Virus record (IMG/VR): IMGVR_UViG_3300012281_000038
DNA from: a virus
Taxonomy: Duplodnaviria > Heunggongvirae > Uroviricota > Caudoviricetes
Length of the DNA stretch: 10,244 bases
Reading direction: 5' to 3' (one strand)
Each line of letters begins with the position of its first letter. Position 1 is the stretch's first letter. The translations under genes and the position numbers were made by a program. Below are positions 260 to 9,404 of the stretch, in pieces. The notes below the pieces were generated by a model. It was not told where the DNA came from. It made no database searches and worked only from the letters and a program-made list of their open reading frames with translations.

Positions 260-421
260 TCACATACAGCCTGCCAGCGCCTTATCTATTAACCCTCGTG
301 CAATTTCATGCAGAGTTGGCGCTACTCCAATTCCTGATTTTTTACGCTGCTCTTCCTGAATTTTCTTTATCGCTTCCATTTGCTTCTCACTTATCAATAC
401 CGGCTTTACTGAAATAGCCAT
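260..421 (-). CDS. small hypothetical protein (53 aa), possibly a small DNA-binding regulator (ribbon-helix-helix-like pattern is a guess)
   Basis: ATG 421-419 preceded by GGGGG four nt upstream; stop TGA 262-260. Translation MAISVKPVLISEKQMEAIKKIQEEQRKKSGIGVAPTLHEIARGLIDKALAGCM. Below the 60-aa cut-off of the ORF track. Sits directly behind a LexA-box-like operator and -10 element. Confidence 0.4.
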   Translation of the reverse strand: MAISVKPVLISEKQMEAIKKIQEEQRKKSGIGVAPTLHEIARGLIDKALAGCM

Positions 422-434
422 AACGCCCCCTTAG

Positions 435-460
435 AACTGTATAAAACAACAGTTATTATA
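435..460 (-). promoter_or_regulatory. candidate SOS-type operator: palindrome AACTGT-N8-ACAGTT (435-454) abutting a perfect TATAAT -10 hexamer (460-455, minus strand)
   Basis: The sequence AACTGTATAAAACAACAGTT contains the CTGT-N8-ACAG core of the LexA box consensus TACTGTATATATATACAGTA. It lies between the -10 hexamer and the RBS/ATG of the 53-aa ORF. No convincing -35 hexamer was found. Confidence 0.4.
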
Positions 461-513
461 GTTTCACAAATCGCAATATTCATCATCGTAATTGCAAAAT
501 ATGAAACAGATAG

Positions 514-1014: not shown

Positions 1015-3727
1015 TCATTCTTCAGATGAGTTGTAATCTCCTGGCTGGTAATTGAGTACATAAACGTTTATTTGTCGTCCCTGAATACGTGGTGATTTTC
1101 TTTGGTATCCACGACCGCTGTTTGGTGGGGTTAGCATCCCGGCTTTTTTCAACACTTCAGCAAACTGTTTTGCGTTGAAACCACATGCGATCTCCTTTTC
1201 AAATGTGGCCGGGAATGTGTAGAAAATCATTGGGCTTTCGTCATGTTCTCCACGCTGACGGTATCCGGCTAAATCTTTGATGGGCAAATCTGCCGGGCTG
1301 TATGGAAATGGTGCAAAACGGCTAAGCCCATAGGCATTAAGAAATGCCTCCGTTTGTTCAATAATCTGCTGATGTTCTTTGTTACCTGTGCCGAACTCGC
1401 GCAACCATGCGTTATAGCTGTGCTGTATCGCATCACGGCATGTCTGAGCATCCCAGCCTGTTACAACCTCGCCTAACAGCAATGCGGCCTCCAGAATGGC
1501 AAATCGCGCGGCTACACGGTGAACCTGCTCACCATAATCGGATGGGATCAGACTTCTCCATCTGCTTTCGCAGTCACGAACAGTTTTAATTGCCTGTTGC
1601 TGGTGGTCTGCCAGCCATTTAATCCACTCACGCCCGGCTGCGCCGTGGTGATGCTGGTAAGCGTCTTTCAGTGCGTCTGCGTGCTGTTTTCCGTTCTGGT
1701 AATCGTGAAAGCGTACTGCTTTACTCAACGGAATATTCAGCAGTCGCACCAGTTGCCCGGCTTTGGTTTTTCGCCCGGAAGTAGCGATAAATGTTTCTAA
1801 ATCCATTTCTCCGGTGCTGATTGCCACTGTACGCCAGCGTTTTAGATCCCGGTTTCCACCATCTTTAGCGCCTTGCAGTTTCCCTACGCCGTTAAATAAC
1901 GCATAGGCAGACTGTGAAACACTGACAGGATCAGCGCCCTGACCAACTTCATCAAGCGGCATTAGTCCGTCATTGTGGGCGGCGGCTTCATTTGCCAGCC
2001 CCAGCGCGGTTCCGTACCACGTCAGCCGCAGTAAATCAGGGTTGCCGTATAAGCTGCTCGCCACGTTTGCCGTGGTGGTCTTACCTGCGCTCGACTGCTC
2101 ATAGAAATGAATGCCGAACCCGTCAGCGCCCACCAGCCTAATCAATGGCGCTGCCAGTGCTGCGCCGATCCCGGTCATCATTGAATAGTTACCAAAGGCC
2201 AGACGCGCCACGTTATCACGCCAGCTTTTCGCGCTCCCTGAGACGGTATATCCGGCTGCGGCTGAGCTTCTCCCGCTGAACAGCACAGGATTTTCAGGTG
2301 TTCCGATGATTTCCCCATCAGGCATGATGTACGCTCCGCATTGCCAGCCAGTGGCATGAGCAACACGCCACAATTCACGAGAGCCACTGCGTTGTAGCCA
2401 GTCTGCCAGTATTGCTCTGAGGCTGCTTTTGGTCGTGACATTTACCCCACCAGCTTTAAGTGTGCGCCATCCTTCACGTTCACCAATATCAGCCAGTGGA
2501 ATGGCAGCGGTTGTCGGCGTTTCAGAACCAAACGACAGCCAGCGAAGAATGAGATACTGGTCTTTATCGTCTCTGCCAGTACCGATAACGCTTAACGGAG
2601 AACATAACCAGCTTTCGTTATTGATGATTTCTCCACTCTGGCTGTCAGCTCTCGGAGATACCCAATAAATGCCATCCTCGCGGCTTTCTATTCTTGGTTT
2701 CAGTGGGTCGGTATCCATAACCTTAAAATCGCTTCCCTCAATGGTTTGTGGCTCCTGTTTCACGCCATTACCCTGTGGTTGGTACATTGACTTATTGAAC
2801 GCTTCTGTGGCGCATTTAATGCCGTGTTTTTGGTGGTAATCATTCCAGTCTGCTTTGTGATCTGTCGGGGGTAATGCCACCCATCCAGAAACAGATAAAG
2901 CTGCTTTTTCTGCTGCTATTCTCCCCGTGTTTTGTCTTCCTTCGCGGTGGTCGTTATCCGCAGCAATGATGATTTGTGCTGAAGGAAATTTATCCTGCAG
3001 TACCTGGGCGACATATAACAGGTTCCCGGCATCAATCGCCGCCACTGTCAGCGCCTCTGGACGCATTAAATGGGCAGATAATGCCGTTGCCAGCCCTTCT
3101 GCGATTAAGATGCTCTGTGTTGTTTCTGGTGNNNNNNNNNNCACCATGTGAGGTAATAGTCTGTGCTGCTGTTACTGCGCCGGATTTATCCACCAGCGCC
3201 AGCAACAGAGATCCATCGGGCAACACGGGGAATGTAAAATCACCTACCCCTTTCGCAACCAGATAATCAGATTTGCCGTTTACAGCCTTTCTGCGCATGT
3301 CATCAAACTGACGGGAAAACGTATCCCGTCTTTGTTGTTCGTCCTTCTCTTCCCTTTTCAGGCGCTCCTGTTCGCGTCGCTGGCGCTCGGTTTCCAGTTG
3401 TTCCCGTTTCTGGCTGGTGGCTTCTGGTGTTTCCGTTGTCCGGTAATCAATACCCAGAACATCAGCGGCAAGAAGCGCCGCCTCTGTTGTGTCGCAGTTA
3501 TTTACGCGTTTAATTAAATCCAGCCCATCACCAGCGCCGCACTGATTACAGATGAAGCTACCGCGCCCGTTGTCATCGAACCGGAATCGATCTTTGCCCC
3601 CACATGCAGGGCAGGGAGCATGACGGCGCGGAGAGTCAGGGACATTTATGTTCAGGCAGCCCAGCACATGAGGCCAGTTGTTTTCAGACGCACTGATAAC
3701 CTGACGGATAAGATCAATGTTTCGCAT
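1015..3727 (-). CDS. DNA primase-helicase: N-terminal zinc-ribbon, TOPRIM domain, C-terminal P-loop NTPase (D5/DUF5906-like); reading frame broken at the 10-N run 3132-3141
   Basis: Track ORFs 3032-3730 and 1015-3147 are two halves of one gene. The N-terminal half has CPACGG...CNQCG (zinc ribbon). The second half has the TOPRIM signature (IAEGLATALS ... IIIAADNDHREGRQ) and a Walker-A-like SSAGKTT. The likely start is ATG 3727-3725 (GTG at 3730 is the track start). The two halves are in different frames across the N run. Confidence 0.85.
3132..3141. other. run of 10 N (masked or unresolved bases) inside the primase gene
   Basis: Literal n characters. Flanking reading frames differ by one, so the true length is probably not 10, or the gene is frameshifted. 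Confidence 0.95.
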
Positions 3728-4085
3728 CACCGTACCCCACGTGGTCTATAGCGTTTGCGATATGGCTAACCAGCATCTGCCACTTGGTTATTCCGTAATC
3801 AGTCAGCATGCCATCATTGTTTAGCCACATATCAAATTCAGCGGTTGTCGCAAGTTTCCACTTATCGCCGTGGACAGTCCTCATTGCTGGGTACATGAAT
3901 GCGCAAATCAGATCACAAACATCTGACGGCTTCAGAGATGTAGTAATGGTGCGTCCCTCTGGCGTCTGAATTGCCATTTTCTCTTCACCAGTAGAATGAA
4001 GGTTATGAATCCACACAGCGCCAGCAATCTTTGCCACCTGCTCTCCGATTGCGGAGCTAAGCGCCATTTCTGCATTTTCACGCAT
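3714..4085 (-). CDS. hypothetical protein (123 aa)
   Basis: ATG 4085-4083 with GGGAGG five nt upstream; stop TGA 3716-3714, overlapping the primase start by 14 nt. No family recognised. Confidence 0.6.
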   Translation of the reverse strand: MRENAEMALSSAIGEQVAKIAGAVWIHNLHSTGEEKMAIQTPEGRTITTSLKPSDVCDLICAFMYPAMRTVHGDKWKLATTAEFDMWLNNDGMLTDYGITKWQMLVSHIANAIDHVGYGDAKH

Positions 4086-5623: not shown

Positions 5624-6683
5624 TGGTTGCCCCCGTTTTTCCTGGCATTTCGCCACCTTCCAGCAGGAAATGAACGTCACGAACGGCGAGATCCAATATC
5701 GCGAGTAACGCCTTCAGTTTTTCGTCTCGTGAGGGAGAGTTGCTCACCAGAATGTCATTAATCACTTCTGTCAGTGTGATGATCTGGCTTGTGCGTTCGA
5801 GGGGATCCATATGCACATCGTAGGTTTTAATCATGTGCCACCTCCATGCGGATACGACCAGCAAAAAAGCAGACGTGATCGCGCACCAGAGAACGGCGAG
5901 CATCGCGTTCAGACTCGGCAGCAATATGATGAATTTTGGCGGTAATTGTCGGGCAATCGCGGCGAACTGCGGCGATAATCCAGATAAATTGCGGTTTTTG
6001 GGTAGGGGTAGTAGCCAGCATGTGGCAGCCTCCTTGTACTGGGAATTCTTCCCACCACCGGAGCTGCGAAACTCGCTGGTGGTGGACTGAACAGAGTTCG
6101 CAGTACCGGCGTACAAGGAAACCGGCCAGCCTTTCGGCTGCCCTGTCCAGCCCACCATAATTTTGCAAGCGACGCGGATTATAACCACATCACTGAAAAA
6201 AGTGTGAGTCTGGCTAACGGCACAAAAAAAGACGCTCGGCGCGTCATGTGTCGCCTCGTACATTTCCGGGCTGCGAAACCCGGCACCCGTTTTATGAGGT
6301 GCCTTATAACCATAAACCGTGTTGCCGCATAACGACAAGCTCTTTTTTATGGACTCCGAAAACTCACTATTGGAAGCACCAGATGCACAATACATCGCGC
6401 TCATTTCGTTAACGTCGCGCGTGTGGACGAAGGTTTTTGTGGAGCCACTACGCGAGCAGAGAAAGCCATCTACGACCAGAAATTCTCTGGCGCAGCCGCT
6501 GACCCTCTCAACGATAACACCATCGACCGTAATTTCTGACATAGTTAAGGCATCCGCTCCTACCACCAGCAAATGATAAACTTTGCTTGCATCTGCTGTA
6601 TTAATGCCTGATTTTGCTGTCATATTGCTGGATTTTTGCCACATACCAGCCAGTGAAAATATCTTCTTCTGGGCGGTTAGCAT
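5616..6683 (-). CDS. 355-aa open frame of doubtful integrity: good start signals, but the middle contains hairpins and T-runs and may be non-coding or a structured RNA; an internal start would give a 72-aa C-terminal product (5616-5834)
   Basis: ATG 6683-6681 with GGAGG seven nt upstream and the same ATGNNNTAA overlap with the preceding gene as elsewhere in the operon. The frame stays open for 355 codons. The central part is low-complexity and carries a terminator-like hairpin with T-run (6224-6245) and two hairpins sharing the 10-mer GCTGCGAAAC. An internal GGAGG + ATG (5834-5832) precedes a well-formed C-terminal segment MIKTYDVHMDPLERTSQ... Confidence 0.35.
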   Translation of the reverse strand: MLTAQKKIFSLAGMWQKSSNMTAKSGINTADASKVYHLLVVGADALTMSEITVDGVIVERVSGCAREFLVVDGFLCSRSGSTKTFVHTRDVNEMSAMYCASGASNSEFSESIKKSLSLCGNTVYGYKAPHKTGAGFRSPEMYEATHDAPSVFFCAVSQTHTFFSDVVIIRVACKIMVGWTGQPKGWPVSLYAGTANSVQSTTSEFRSSGGGKNSQYKEAATCWLLPLPKNRNLSGLSPQFAAIARQLPPKFIILLPSLNAMLAVLWCAITSAFLLVVSAWRWHMIKTYDVHMDPLERTSQIITLTEVINDILVSNSPSRDEKLKALLAILDLAVRDVHFLLEGGEMPGKTGATNE

Positions 6684-6859
6684 TTGTTAACCTCCGCGAA
6701 CTCCTTCATGAAACGTGCCAGCGGTTGTACGCATGGCGATTGATACCCGTCGCGATAAAACGTCACTCGGTTGTGAGACACGCTTTCGACAGTAACGAGT
6801 GCTCCGTGGGCATCTTTGTAGCGTTTTTGAGGTTGTGGTGTTCCTGTCGGCTTAAACAT
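6677..6859 (-). CDS. hypothetical small protein (60 aa)
   Basis: ATG 6859-6857 with GGAGG eight nt upstream, overlapping the stop of the antirepressor gene (ATGTTTAA). Stop TAA 6679-6677. Confidence 0.5.
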   Translation of the reverse strand: MFKPTGTPQPQKRYKDAHGALVTVESVSHNRVTFYRDGYQSPCVQPLARFMKEFAEVNKC

Positions 6860-7700
6860 GGACCGCCTCCAGACGCTTAGCGAGCCAGCGTTGCGACAGG
6901 CGGGTGAGTTCTCCTTTGCGCTGCTCATATTCCATGCCCATATCAATTAACGTGATATTGGTGCTTTCGAGATATGAGAGGTGCTCAAGCTGTTCTGCGT
7001 TCATATGGTCGCGAGGTTCGCCAGAATAGCCATTTATCCGCGCCCACTGCTTAGCAGTTAGCCCACCAAGAACGATACGAGAAATCATATTGCTCTCGTT
7101 TGTGTAGTGGTGTTGCTGCGTCGTTTTACCCATCTCGGCACGGGCCATATTCAGCGCATCGCACATTGGCTTAAAGTTGTTTGCGGCACTGATACGGGCT
7201 TTTAGCTGGCGACGATAGCGGGCGGCGATTTCAGGCACGCTACGCTGTAATTCTTCCTCGCACTGGATGAAATAACGGCGGATAGCGCGACCCTGATCAT
7301 TGCGTTCGATCATTGCCAGTTCTTTCGCCATTCCGACACTTAACAGATAGTCTTTGCCGGGTCTGCCAGACTGCTTAATCTTGCTGTAAGCCGCGCCATT
7401 CGGGCTTTTCCCCAAATTTGGGGAAATTGTTTTATGGACTGAGTAATCGCGCCCAATGGTGAAGTCATACTCAGAGATGCGNNNNNNNNNNNNNNNNNNN
7501 NNNNNNNNNNNNNAGAAGTCTTTTCCCACGCCCAACGCTTTGTGTAACGCTTTTGCGCTAACAATATTGGTTTCACGCCCACCGATATGACCAGGAATAA
7601 CCGGGACAATTGCGGCAAATTCATTACCGTTAATTGTGCCCAGAAAGGCGTTCGGATGAGGGGCGGCCTCAGAAATTAATCTGCTTTTTTCGATGTTCAT
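6852..7700 (-). CDS. phage antirepressor-like protein (AntA N-terminal domain + KilA-C/ANT C-terminal domain)
   Basis: ATG 7700-7698 with GGAGA upstream. Motifs VSAKALHKALGVGKDF ... GRPGKDYLLSVGMAKELAMIERNDQGRAIRRYFIQCEEEL match the AntA/KilAC antirepressor pattern. A 32-N run (7482-7513) falls inside without disturbing the frame. Confidence 0.75.
   Translation of the reverse strand: MNIEKSRLISEAAPHPNAFLGTINGNEFAAIVPVIPGHIGGRETNIVSAKALHKALGVGKDFXXXXXXXXXXXRISEYDFTIGRDYSVHKTISPNLGKSPNGAAYSKIKQSGRPGKDYLLSVGMAKELAMIERNDQGRAIRRYFIQCEEELQRSVPEIAARYRRQLKARISAANNFKPMCDALNMARAEMGKTTQQHHYTNESNMISRIVLGGLTAKQWARINGYSGEPRDHMNAEQLEHLSYLESTNITLIDMGMEYEQRKGELTRLSQRWLAKRLEAVHV
7482..7513. other. run of 32 N (masked or unresolved bases) inside the antirepressor gene
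   Basis: Literal n characters. Confidence 0.95.
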
Positions 7701-7712
7701 TTTCAGTCTCCG

Positions 7713-8144
7713 TTAGGCGGCGTTAAACGCGTCCGGGTAGAGTTTCAGAATGTCGGCAATTTCCTGCTGAGAAAGTCCGTTGTGATCATTTATGTTCGCA
7801 AGATGGTTAACATGAGTGATCACTTTCAGAACATCACCACGGCAGGAGAAACGGTAGCGAAGGTGTGCTCCGATACCATCAGGATTCTTTTCGTCGATAC
7901 GCTCCAGAGTGATCCCAAGCTGGCGTTCTAACTCTGTTGCATAGTTACGACCAGAAGACAGACGGCAGTAGCGAAGAATGTCGTTTTCTGTCCATCCCTC
8001 TATACCAGTACGCAGCATATAGACTCGGGCGCGATGCTTTTTCGGTGTGCGCTTTGGTGCTTGAAGGGATTTTGTCAGGGGCGTAACATCAGATACGCGA
8101 ATATCTGAATTAGCCGCCTGTAATGGGCGGTTTTTCTTTTCCAT
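7713..8144 (-). CDS. hypothetical protein (143 aa), basic N-terminus, possible C-terminal helix-turn-helix
   Basis: ATG 8144-8142 overlaps the alpA-like stop (TGATG). Stop TAA 7715-7713. The C-terminal GLSQQEIADILKL resembles an HTH recognition segment. No family confidently recognised. Confidence 0.55.
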   Translation of the reverse strand: MEKKNRPLQAANSDIRVSDVTPLTKSLQAPKRTPKKHRARVYMLRTGIEGWTENDILRYCRLSSGRNYATELERQLGITLERIDEKNPDGIGAHLRYRFSCRGDVLKVITHVNHLANINDHNGLSQQEIADILKLYPDAFNAA

Positions 8145-8347
8145 CAGGCCACCTTCCCGCGGCGTTCTGCCAGCCAGTTGTGAATCTCAACCGCATCAAA
8201 CGCAGTTATTTTTTCTCCCAGCTTTACCGGACGTGGTAGTGAACCGTTTCTTACTTTACGGTCGATGGTGGATACACTAACGCCCAGCAATTCAGCCAAG
8301 CGGAAGCGTCTGATATAGCCTTTTGTAGGAATAGTGTCAGTGTTCAT
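8144..8347 (-). CDS. alpA: AlpA-family phage transcriptional regulator / excisionase-like HTH protein (67 aa)
   Basis: Translation MNTDTIPTKGYIRRFRLAELLGVSVSTIDRKVRNGSLPRPVKLGEKITAFDAVEIHNWLAERRG fits the AlpA (Phage_AlpA) HTH pattern. ATG 8347-8345. Position between integrase and replication genes is typical. Confidence 0.8.
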   Translation of the reverse strand: MNTDTIPTKGYIRRFRLAELLGVSVSTIDRKVRNGSLPRPVKLGEKITAFDAVEIHNWLAERRGKVA

Positions 8348-8420
8348 GCTTCCCGTAACCTCTTAACGATAGTTGTTGCTTCGTTACGAGAAAACTAACT
8401 GTATAGATATACAATGAAAA

Positions 8421-8442
8421 GGTACTGTATTTTTGCAGTACC
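8421..8442 (-). terminator. hairpin GGTACTG-N8-CAGTACC followed by TTTTCATT on the minus strand; possible terminator of the int-cargo transcript, or an operator
   Basis: Perfect 7-bp inverted repeat (8421-8427 / 8436-8442) starting 12 nt after the stop of the 316-aa gene, with a T-rich tail on the minus strand. Confidence 0.4.
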
Positions 8443-8453
8443 TCTATAGTAAG

Positions 8454-9404
8454 TTAACTATCTACTTTGCCATTTGCCGCAGCTCGTAGATGTTTAAGAA
8501 TTACATCTTCATTAGTTATCATAAGTGGTGGAACTTCGCCTAAATGCCGAACAAGGCAGTCACGCCACTTTTCCGGGCTTATTTCTTTCCTTTCTCCTCT
8601 GCATTCATCTGGATACTTACTAAGTATATAAATTGCAGATTTTAATAGTTTCTCCCTATTGACAGCGTGTCGTTCGGCACGTTTATTGACTTTCAACGTG
8701 TTTATATCATTGGATAACTTGTTTGCAGAAGGCTTGTGCGTGGGTTTATCATAAATATATCTTCCTCCATTGATAAGGAGATTGAATTCATAATCAGTTA
8801 TATACATTTTGTTCCGGCTTACTTCATACCATCCGTCAATATAAAAAGTTCCGATTTCATAATCCGGCGATTTATAAAAATCGTCACATCTTGGCGGCGT
8901 CAATTCGCATACTGAAATCTCCCAATCATCCCATTCTGATAGCTCTCGCTCATCGTTATCTATGAATGCAGGAGGAATTGCTAATAGACCGCACCATCTT
9001 TCTATCTCTCTTTTATCCTTTCCGACATTGTATCGCTCTATAACTGAAAAATGCTCTGATTTGTATGAAAATCTAATAAAATACAGGTGGTTATCGTCAT
9101 TTTTGTCATCAAGGGATGATAATCCATATGATTCAGGATCATCTATATTATCGCTCAGTCCAAGAAGGTAGTTCTCATTTGCCACTTTCTCATCTATATC
9201 GAAAAAGCTATCTGTTTCAACTTTAAGTAATTCTGGCTCGGCATTTTCATCTTTTGGGTAATGGTAAAACAATTCAATAGGTGGAATCTTTGTGCATATT
9301 TCTAAAACCCCAATTGCTGCATAGTGTATTAAATCGGATACTTCACATCCGGCCAGTTTGGCTGCTTTATCCAAAGAATAATATTTATGCGCAGGTAATT
9401 TCAT
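8454..9404 (-). CDS. hypothetical protein (316 aa), low-GC cargo gene; possible N-terminal HTH, acidic central region; function unknown
   Basis: ATG 9404-9402 with strong RBS GGAGGAGAG seven nt upstream, 18 nt after the integrase stop. GC is about 33-38% in sampled stretches against about 50-53% for neighbouring genes. The N-terminal YSLDKAAKLAGCEVSDLIHYAAIGVL resembles an excisionase/MerR-type HTH. No catalytic motif recognised. Confidence 0.7.
   Translation of the reverse strand: MKLPAHKYYSLDKAAKLAGCEVSDLIHYAAIGVLEICTKIPPIELFYHYPKDENAEPELLKVETDSFFDIDEKVANENYLLGLSDNIDDPESYGLSSLDDKNDDNHLYFIRFSYKSEHFSVIERYNVGKDKREIERWCGLLAIPPAFIDNDERELSEWDDWEISVCELTPPRCDDFYKSPDYEIGTFYIDGWYEVSRNKMYITDYEFNLLINGGRYIYDKPTHKPSANKLSNDINTLKVNKRAERHAVNREKLLKSAIYILSKYPDECRGERKEISPEKWRDCLVRHLGEVPPLMITNEDVILKHLRAAANGKVDS

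Follow-up and report, generated by a model that had tools for sequence, protein, structure and literature searches.

A predicted LexA operator at the promoter of a virion-protein operon in an EcCIMP1-type satellite island

The window analysed here is a stretch of 10,244 nucleotides from IMG/VR record IMGVR_UViG_3300012281_000038, assigned to the Caudoviricetes. The minus strand of its positions 1-560 carries the promoter and the first one and a half genes of a virion-protein operon belonging to a phage-inducible chromosomal island (PICI) of the EcCIMP1 type. EcCIMP1, a PICI of Escherichia coli MP1, is the one island of this type with experimentally shown excision and transduction, and both require the P22-like helper phage Kapi1 (Pick, Stadel & Raivio, ISME J 2025; PMC11773190). 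Directly downstream of the −10 hexamer of the operon promoter lies a palindrome whose sequence, score, position and conservation across lineages make it a plausible LexA operator. We put the probability that LexA gates the virion-protein operon of the satellite at roughly 0.65. Behind a small regulator-like gene, the operon encodes homologues of the proteins with which P22-like phages deliver their DNA.

A palindrome next to a promoter without a −35 element

The predicted LexA box is a palindromic 20-mer at positions 435-454, AACTGTATAAAACAACAGTT as read on the plus strand and AACTGTTGTTTTATACAGTT on the minus strand. It starts 1 nt past a perfect TATAAT hexamer (460-455, minus strand, by direct sequence reading) and ends 13 nt before the ATG of the first gene. 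It would lie over the transcription start expected for this promoter, which has no −35 element. The ribosome-binding site (RBS), AAGGGGG, was read at 432-426, 4 nt before that ATG. The first gene is a 53-aa open reading frame (ORF) at 421-260, with its ATG at 421; the 5′ part of the second gene, 81 codons, occupies 243-1 and runs off the left edge, both on the minus strand. An earlier note on this DNA, made from the sequence alone, had described a palindrome with the LexA core CTGT-N8-ACAG between TATAAT and the RBS of a 53-aa protein, followed by a second gene leaving the window. All of these elements are present on the minus strand, with the core at 437-452; the gap between the two genes is 16 nt instead of the 17 nt given there.

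The columns of the −10 hexamer are at least 90% conserved in an alignment of 23 promoters from related loci (alignment A2). A sigma-70 scan called no promoter at TATAAT 460-455, and no −35 element is recognisable. Its place is occupied by a 15-mer dyad, TTGCGATTTGTGAAA (462-476, minus strand), which abuts the −10, and a second 15-mer dyad, TTTCATATTTTGCAA, lies farther upstream (492-506, minus strand). Both were found by a regular-expression scan and follow the family pattern TTKCR-N5-YGMAA. Their centres are 30 bp apart in the window and in loci L009 and L016, the three lineages measured, and the position of the distal dyad is kept throughout the alignment. The dyads are conserved across genera, even in lineages without a LexA box, and are candidate operators for a regulator other than LexA, for example the probable ribbon-helix-helix (RHH) protein encoded by the first gene, or an activator.

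Upstream of the dyads, a terminator scan and RNAfold locate an intrinsic terminator on the minus strand at ~550-516, consisting of a GC-rich hairpin and a run of seven Ts. The 58-nt stretch 562-505 that contains the hairpin has a folding energy of −26.2 kcal/mol, and the hairpin is also kept in the E. coli relatives. This terminator closes the upstream primase/origin region and, as the earlier note had stated, insulates the operon promoter.

CTGT-N8-ACAG occurs once in the window, against 0.10 expected occurrences. The 16-mer, CTGTATAAAACAACAG, conforms to CTG-N10-CAG, the stated LexA consensus (PMC2994835), within a 20-mer close in sequence to TACTGTATATATATACAGTA. Scanning the window with the consensus 20-mer and up to three mismatches gave no match, because the box has five mismatches, all at tolerated positions; a weight matrix was therefore used. 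On a heterology-index (HI) matrix rebuilt from 30 known LexA sites of E. coli, the box scores 4.44 and ranks eighth best among 31, between yebG and dinQ and ahead of recA, sulA and lexA. The 30 known sites, scored leave-one-out, span 1.25-12.7, so that the weight-matrix check suggested by the earlier note places the box inside the range of known operators. As a positive control, the genuine dinD box was recovered in the chromosome flanking the related island of strain D8, with an HI of 2.19. None of 200 shuffled windows contained an equally good site, and the exact probability of an HI of 4.44 or lower is 1.1e-8 per 20-mer, corresponding to 2e-4 expected sites per window and ~0.1 per 5-Mb genome. 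Chance is a poor explanation for the match.

Conservation of the LexA box and its limits

We gathered ~60 related Enterobacterales loci from contigs with diverged homologues, species-representative genomes, E. coli variants and viral contigs, the last being scanned for a −10 plus the left half-site. The eight E. coli-type loci sampled, EcCIMP1 among them, all have the same box core, despite substitutions in the surrounding promoter. A canonical CTG-N10-CAG is found in 28 loci, in seven 20-mer versions with HI values of 4.4-8.5. One of the seven is that of the window, and the six further versions, GACTGTTGTTTTATACAGTT, TACTGTGTCTATATACAGTT, AGCTGTATCGTTATACAGTG, TACTGTATCGTTATCCAGTG, TACTGTATAAAATAACAGGA and AGCTGTATAAATAAACAGGG, score 4.6-8.5; one of these six is the window 20-mer with G at position 1. 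P22-type genes follow five of the seven versions and tape-measure genes the other two. The half-sites are fixed and the spacer is variable, a pattern that would be the expected signature of a LexA operator. In three loci of the Leclercia/L035 lineage, which carry T7-like cargo, the box has decayed. Their 20-mer is clearly homologous to the Citrobacter box but lacks the C in both CTG and CAG (TTGT...AGAG).

Several points weigh against LexA control of the operon. In 31 loci, about half of the set, the canonical box is replaced by a motif that is 1 bp shorter, CTGTATAAATAT-CAGG (HI 12.6-18), which is predicted not to bind LexA and in which the CAG merges with the RBS. This motif retains the left CTGTAT, and the palindrome is therefore partly conserved for reasons other than LexA. 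Judged by these motifs, SOS control is specific to certain lineages and not a rule of the family; the box is well maintained in the lineage of the window and absent elsewhere. Absolute values from the rebuilt matrix also differ from published ones (umuDC scores 1.25 here and 2.77 in print). Lacking a −35, the promoter may be inactive unless an activator assists, LexA then being one input among several, and lytic infection by a helper, bringing no SOS signal, would leave a LexA-repressed operon off unless repression were relieved in another way. The paper on EcCIMP1 makes no mention of LexA, an SOS box, a small RHH gene or the P22 gp7/gp20/gp16 identities, and it reports that Kapi1 titres are not reduced after induction; a role of the cargo in interference is therefore unsupported (PMC11773190).

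The genes behind the shorter motif mostly encode hub, T7-like, tape-measure or transglycosylase proteins, with locus L108 as a P22-type exception. The proposal that loss of the box tracks a switch to non-P22 cargo is upheld only in part: L108 combines P22 cargo with the short motif, and three tape-measure loci have a canonical box. The state of the box follows promoter lineage as much as cargo.

RHH proteins commonly autoregulate, and the 53-aa RHH gene lies just downstream of the palindrome. The palindrome might thus be the operator of that protein or of a satellite or helper factor, or else an element of the start site or 5′ untranslated region, its match to LexA being incidental and the operon being switched by a satellite/helper circuit instead of by SOS. 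The missing −35 and the two conserved dyads suggest that another regulator does act at this promoter. The TGTAT next to the −10 is invariant in 23 of 23 aligned promoters, including those in which the right half-site is misspaced or destroyed, and is probably conserved for a non-LexA reason too, namely the transcription start. In EcCIMP1, the helper triggers the master switch alpA; DNA damage by itself does not (PMC11773190). An incidental match is nevertheless rather unlikely. A match of this quality has a chance of about 1e-8 per position. In the window's own lineage the right half-site (ACAGT/CCAGT) stands apart from the RBS and is kept in four versions with divergent spacers, and the decayed sites are altered exactly at the critical Cs of the half-sites. 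Moreover, the upstream dyads are better operator candidates for an RHH protein or an activator. Control by LexA and control by another regulator are not mutually exclusive.

An operon of P22-type ejection proteins

Positions 1-720 of the window are 99.9% identical to many E. coli chromosomes. In these relatives the transcription unit comprises five genes, and not the two described in the earlier note, with a terminator directly after the last one. Genes three to five lie outside the window and were read in strain D8 (locus L001), where the genes are tightly packed, with overlaps of 1-7 nt, and encode proteins of 53, 153 (DUF2824), 225, 473 and 701 aa.

The part of the second gene inside the window matches Pfam PF11039 (DUF2824; E 4e-27). 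The search with a complete downstream protein, also proposed in the earlier note, gives PF11039 at E 2e-61 and phrog_651 at E 2e-66 for a full-length relative. This gene occupies the gp14 position of Kapi1-type P22-like phages. In strain D8, the 225-aa protein belongs to PF25688 (P22_gp7; E 2e-72), the 473-aa protein to PF16928 (Inj_translocase, the P22 injectosome translocase gp20; E 2e-58) and the 701-aa protein to phrog_770 (DNA transfer protein, gp16-like; E 3e-161). By homology, the operon thus contains the colinear gp7, gp20 and gp16 of a P22-type ejection module. Both proteins seen in the window had been given as of unknown function; the second now has a family, and the functions of the operon are largely assignable. 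None of its proteins matches a toxin or defence model in Pfam, PHROG, NCBIfam or PADLOC.

The 53-aa protein and WP_001018524.1 of EcCIMP1 have the same sequence. Searches of Pfam, PHROG, NCBIfam, PADLOC and PDB sequences gave no match to it, and neither did 50,697 phage records. Among 5.8 billion proteins 41 relatives were found, and those with a named source all come from Enterobacterales. An AlphaFold2 model based on a 14-sequence alignment (pLDDT 84.6) has two helices behind an extended N-terminus. The N-terminal strand, the two helices and a fold match to solved RHH proteins suggest that the protein is probably a DNA-binding regulator of the RHH type, standing outside the curated RHH families covered by the Pfam, PHROG, NCBIfam and PDB-sequence searches. 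It may bind the dyads upstream of its own gene.

The promoter and small gene are present in 504 of 5,426 complete E. coli genomes (~9%). Some copies of the operon are damaged. In locus L029 an IS3 element (6420-7633) is inserted directly after the small gene, and in enterotoxigenic E. coli H10407 the gp20 homologue contains an internal stop (locus L028, 6358-7701); the promoter and LexA box are intact in both.

Relation to EcCIMP1 and its helper Kapi1

We took as PICI features an integrase, AlpA, a primase/replicase with an origin, a size of ~10-20 kb and a lack of capsid, tail-fibre and lysis genes. The window encodes int, AlpA, AntA, Ash, a primase with Zn-ribbon and Toprim-DUF927 parts, and iterons, as expected of an EcCIMP1-type PICI. 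The full island was annotated in loci L001 and L037. In strain D8 it lies between yicC and dinD and carries an integrase, an AlpA-type regulator, AntA/B, Ash and a TOPRIM-DUF927 primase. The island adjoins the SOS gene dinD in both D8 and STIN_95.

EcCIMP1 (locus L002) has the same gene order as the window (int, alpA, antA/B, ash, TOPRIM-DUF927 primase, then this operon), a 53-aa protein under the same accession, and an identical promoter and box. It differs in its site, which is tRNA-Thr instead of yicC-dinD, and in the region upstream of alpA. The relatives of the window also carry other gp20/gp16 alleles, with 48% identity or none to the EcCIMP1 versions; two satellites may share gp14 and gp7 at ~99% yet have unrelated gp20/gp16 alleles. 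In EcCIMP1, genes EcCIMP1_017-019 downstream of the primase were described as DUF2824 and 'DNA transfer' genes and proposed as possible packaging genes (PMC11773190).

Genes 055-058 of Kapi1 are colinear with the operon. The identity to Kapi1 declines along it, from 83% for the DUF2824 protein (Kapi1_055) and 57% for gp7 to 26-35% for gp20 and ~23% or undetectable for gp16. Kapi1 is induced with mitomycin C (PMC11773190). Our scan of Kapi1 for LexA sites found none with an HI below 11, so that SOS would act on helper and satellite along separate routes.

The operon could be induced by SOS and still serve chiefly for defence or superinfection exclusion, its ejection proteins not equipping particles but acting on P22-like phages, incoming or induced, as decoys or poisons. 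In lysogens, EcCIMP1 strengthens the immunity to superinfection by Kapi1, and the island contains no known system recognised by PADLOC or DefenseFinder (PMC11773190). Likewise, the operon proteins have no PADLOC match here, and the homologues of gp20 and gp16 have diverged strongly from those of Kapi1. We regard such a chief role as quite unlikely. EcCIMP1 leaves Kapi1 titres unreduced, and the cargo mirrors the complete colinear delivery set of a helper type, in other lineages tape-measure proteins and baseplate hubs included; incorporation into particles therefore fits better than a decoy role. The immunity contribution and the unchanged titres do not by themselves decide between loading and decoy roles.

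The damaged copies in L029 and H10407, together with a short cargo in L030, might indicate that the island captured part of a P22-like prophage that is now decaying, with the promoter and LexA box as fossils without current function. This is very unlikely, given how often the promoter and small gene occur in E. coli; at least 12 genera, moreover, keep the module with intact ORFs in this one place behind primase and origin. No phage record searched contains the small gene, which is therefore not a remnant of a prophage, and EcCIMP1 is a functional, transducible PICI (PMC11773190). Hardly credible is the DNA-damage-inducible two-gene toxin-antitoxin-like or induction module suggested in the earlier note, as the second gene is a DUF2824/phrog_651 member close to a gene in the helper's virion module, with overlapping gp7, gp20 and gp16 homologues behind it, the small gene of other lineages precedes tape-measure, hub or T7-core genes, the toxin and defence models gave no matches, and the unit lacks the make-up of a type II toxin-antitoxin system.

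Neighbouring features of the island

The unit adjoins a satellite replication module, as the earlier note had stated, in the form of a primase and an iteron origin. The probable origin (868-990) lies between the primase stop and the terminator and comprises three copies of GTTGGTTCA (868-911) and four inverted copies of TGAACCAAC at 9-bp spacing (954-990), with an AT-rich spacer inside. The primase is split in the window into a 232-aa Zn-ribbon ORF (3730..3032) and a 710-aa Toprim-DUF927 ORF (3147..1015), both on the minus strand. In relatives it is a single 918-aa gene, and BLAST against L037 indicates a deletion of ~44 nt at ~3129-3142; this copy of the island may therefore be impaired, or the primase re-initiated. 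In the accessory region that follows the ejection operon, islands carry PerC-family regulators and often Abi-family genes (L001 21400-21687, L002 2918-3199, L028 11689-11970, L037 29226-29513).

A second LexA-like site, CATTGTATATCTATACAGTT (8397-8416, HI 6.1), was not accepted as an SOS box, one of its half-sites being TTGT. It is found ~50 nt upstream of alpA (8347..8144), just past a terminator hairpin, with a 316-aa ORF (9404..8454) on the other flank. A 151-nt query spanning the site and the alpA start (8330-8480) matches 156 E. coli genomes. The motif is present in two sampled relatives (L037 and L038), misspaced in L039, and absent from EcCIMP1 and strain D8.

In relatives of the Serratia nevei type another strong LexA box of canonical form is present besides that of the operon; TACTGTCTATACATCCAGTT is one example, and the HI values are 4.5-5.8. 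It is located where the integrase gene ends and precedes the DUF6387 and alpA genes (L009 686-705, L010 694-713, L011 845-864). In some lineages SOS may thus act on the front part of the island as well.

A model for LexA gating of the operon

In an undamaged cell, a LexA dimer bound at about −7 to +13 would block RNA polymerase and keep the membrane-active ejection proteins off. DNA damage would activate RecA, LexA would cleave itself and the operon would be released. The same SOS signal would lead to cleavage of the helper's CI repressor and thereby to induction of the prophage. Release of the operon would then coincide with assembly of the helper procapsid, and the ejection proteins of the satellite could be loaded into particles. 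The two upstream dyads, which appear to replace the −35, would probably bind a second regulator, either the RHH protein or an activator from satellite or helper. This regulator would supply the missing −35 function or autoregulate, resulting in a two-input gate. Candidate roles for the satellite's own delivery proteins are loading into hijacked particles, possibly with bypass of exclusion in helper lysogens, or action as decoys.

Cargo swapping across the family

In nearly all of the ~60 loci the small gene comes first after the primase/origin region and has the same promoter architecture. The genes just downstream of it were examined in loci L003-L036 and L041-L149. Escherichia, Citrobacter and a Serratia nevei type carry P22-type gp14/7/20/16, or gp20 with a gp16-SLT protein. 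Leclercia and Klebsiella have T7_gp14 together with SLT-containing proteins resembling those of the internal core. Tape-measure proteins (PF20155; phrog_1107/1538) are present in Pantoea, Chimaeribacter and Lonsdalea, and a truncated 210-aa tape-measure homologue in Serratia silvae. Baseplate hubs (phrog_196) occur in Rahnella and K. michiganensis, and proteins similar to injection transglycosylases in Raoultella, K. michiganensis, Cedecea and Pectobacterium. By homology, every cargo type consists of DNA-delivery virion proteins, which leave the particle or sit at its tip and carry DNA across the envelope.

We tentatively suggest a general satellite strategy, which we hold to be possible but on balance doubtful. 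A conserved cassette after the primase and origin, made of a terminator, dyad operators, a −10, an optional LexA box and the RHH gene, would drive an exchangeable 'entry-apparatus' module that suits the type of helper. The modules encountered here hold P22 ejection proteins, T7-like gp14-16 core proteins, siphovirus tape-measure proteins, myovirus baseplate hubs or injection transglycosylases. Delivery proteins encoded by the satellite, often highly divergent ones, would be loaded into hijacked particles, with LexA providing the timing in lineages whose helpers are SOS-inducible temperate phages. If this is true, one possible purpose would be entry of satellite DNA into cells whose helper prophage excludes the helper's own injection machinery. 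More broadly, satellites may customise the entry apparatus of the particles they steal, which bears on host range, on superinfection exclusion and on the immunity phenotype of EcCIMP1.

The control and purpose of the genes behind the primase had not previously been stated for EcCIMP1-type islands. Recognition of the cargo as the DNA-ejection proteins of the helper moves the question from 'packaging' to 'DNA delivery', and likewise for the tape-measure, hub and T7-core equivalents in sister lineages. Our literature searches returned nothing relevant on a LexA box in Gram-negative PICIs or on ejection or tape-measure proteins encoded by satellites, the transcriptome paper on MP1 contains no SOS data, and a family-wide entry-apparatus cassette is undescribed in the literature searched.

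Comparison with known systems

In predicted fold and size, the 53-aa protein resembles Arc/Mnt, CopG, omega, the N-domain of TraM and the ParD antitoxins, and its gene leads the operon that it probably regulates, as is the case for RHH regulators. It is unlike them in having no sequence-level match to RHH entries of Pfam, NCBIfam or the PDB.

The predicted LexA box shares CTG-N10-CAG, a low HI and a predicted overlap with the −10/+1 region with the operators of colicin genes, umuDC and sulA. Its place directly after the −10 is that of the colicin operators, which form an overlapping pair, whereas the box in the window is single. The promoter differs from those of the E. coli SOS regulon in lacking a −35, in its extra dyads, and in its location on a mobile satellite present in only ~9% of E. 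coli genomes.

The ejection genes of P22 (gp7/gp20/gp16) and Kapi1 (Kapi1_055-058) are colinear with the operon and belong to the same families (PF25688, PF16928, phrog_770 and phrog_651). In the phages these genes stand within a long late operon after the tail-needle gene, without a promoter, an RHH gene or a LexA box of their own.

The closest parallel in regulation is operon I of the Staphylococcus aureus pathogenicity islands (SaPIs), which is controlled by LexA (Ubeda 2007, as cited in PMC5052747). SaPI operon I likewise lies downstream of the replication module, exploits virion assembly by the helper and uses the host LexA as repressor. It has a Gram-positive LexA motif and encodes terS, cpmA/B and pti for packaging and capsid size, with no homology to the operon in the window, whose cargo consists of DNA-ejection proteins. 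LexA control has been shown by experiment for the SaPIs and is predicted for the operon described here. If the prediction is true, this operon would be the first Gram-negative parallel to SaPI operon I. Satellite operons gated by LexA are already known in kind, and the entry-apparatus cassette is the more interesting lead.

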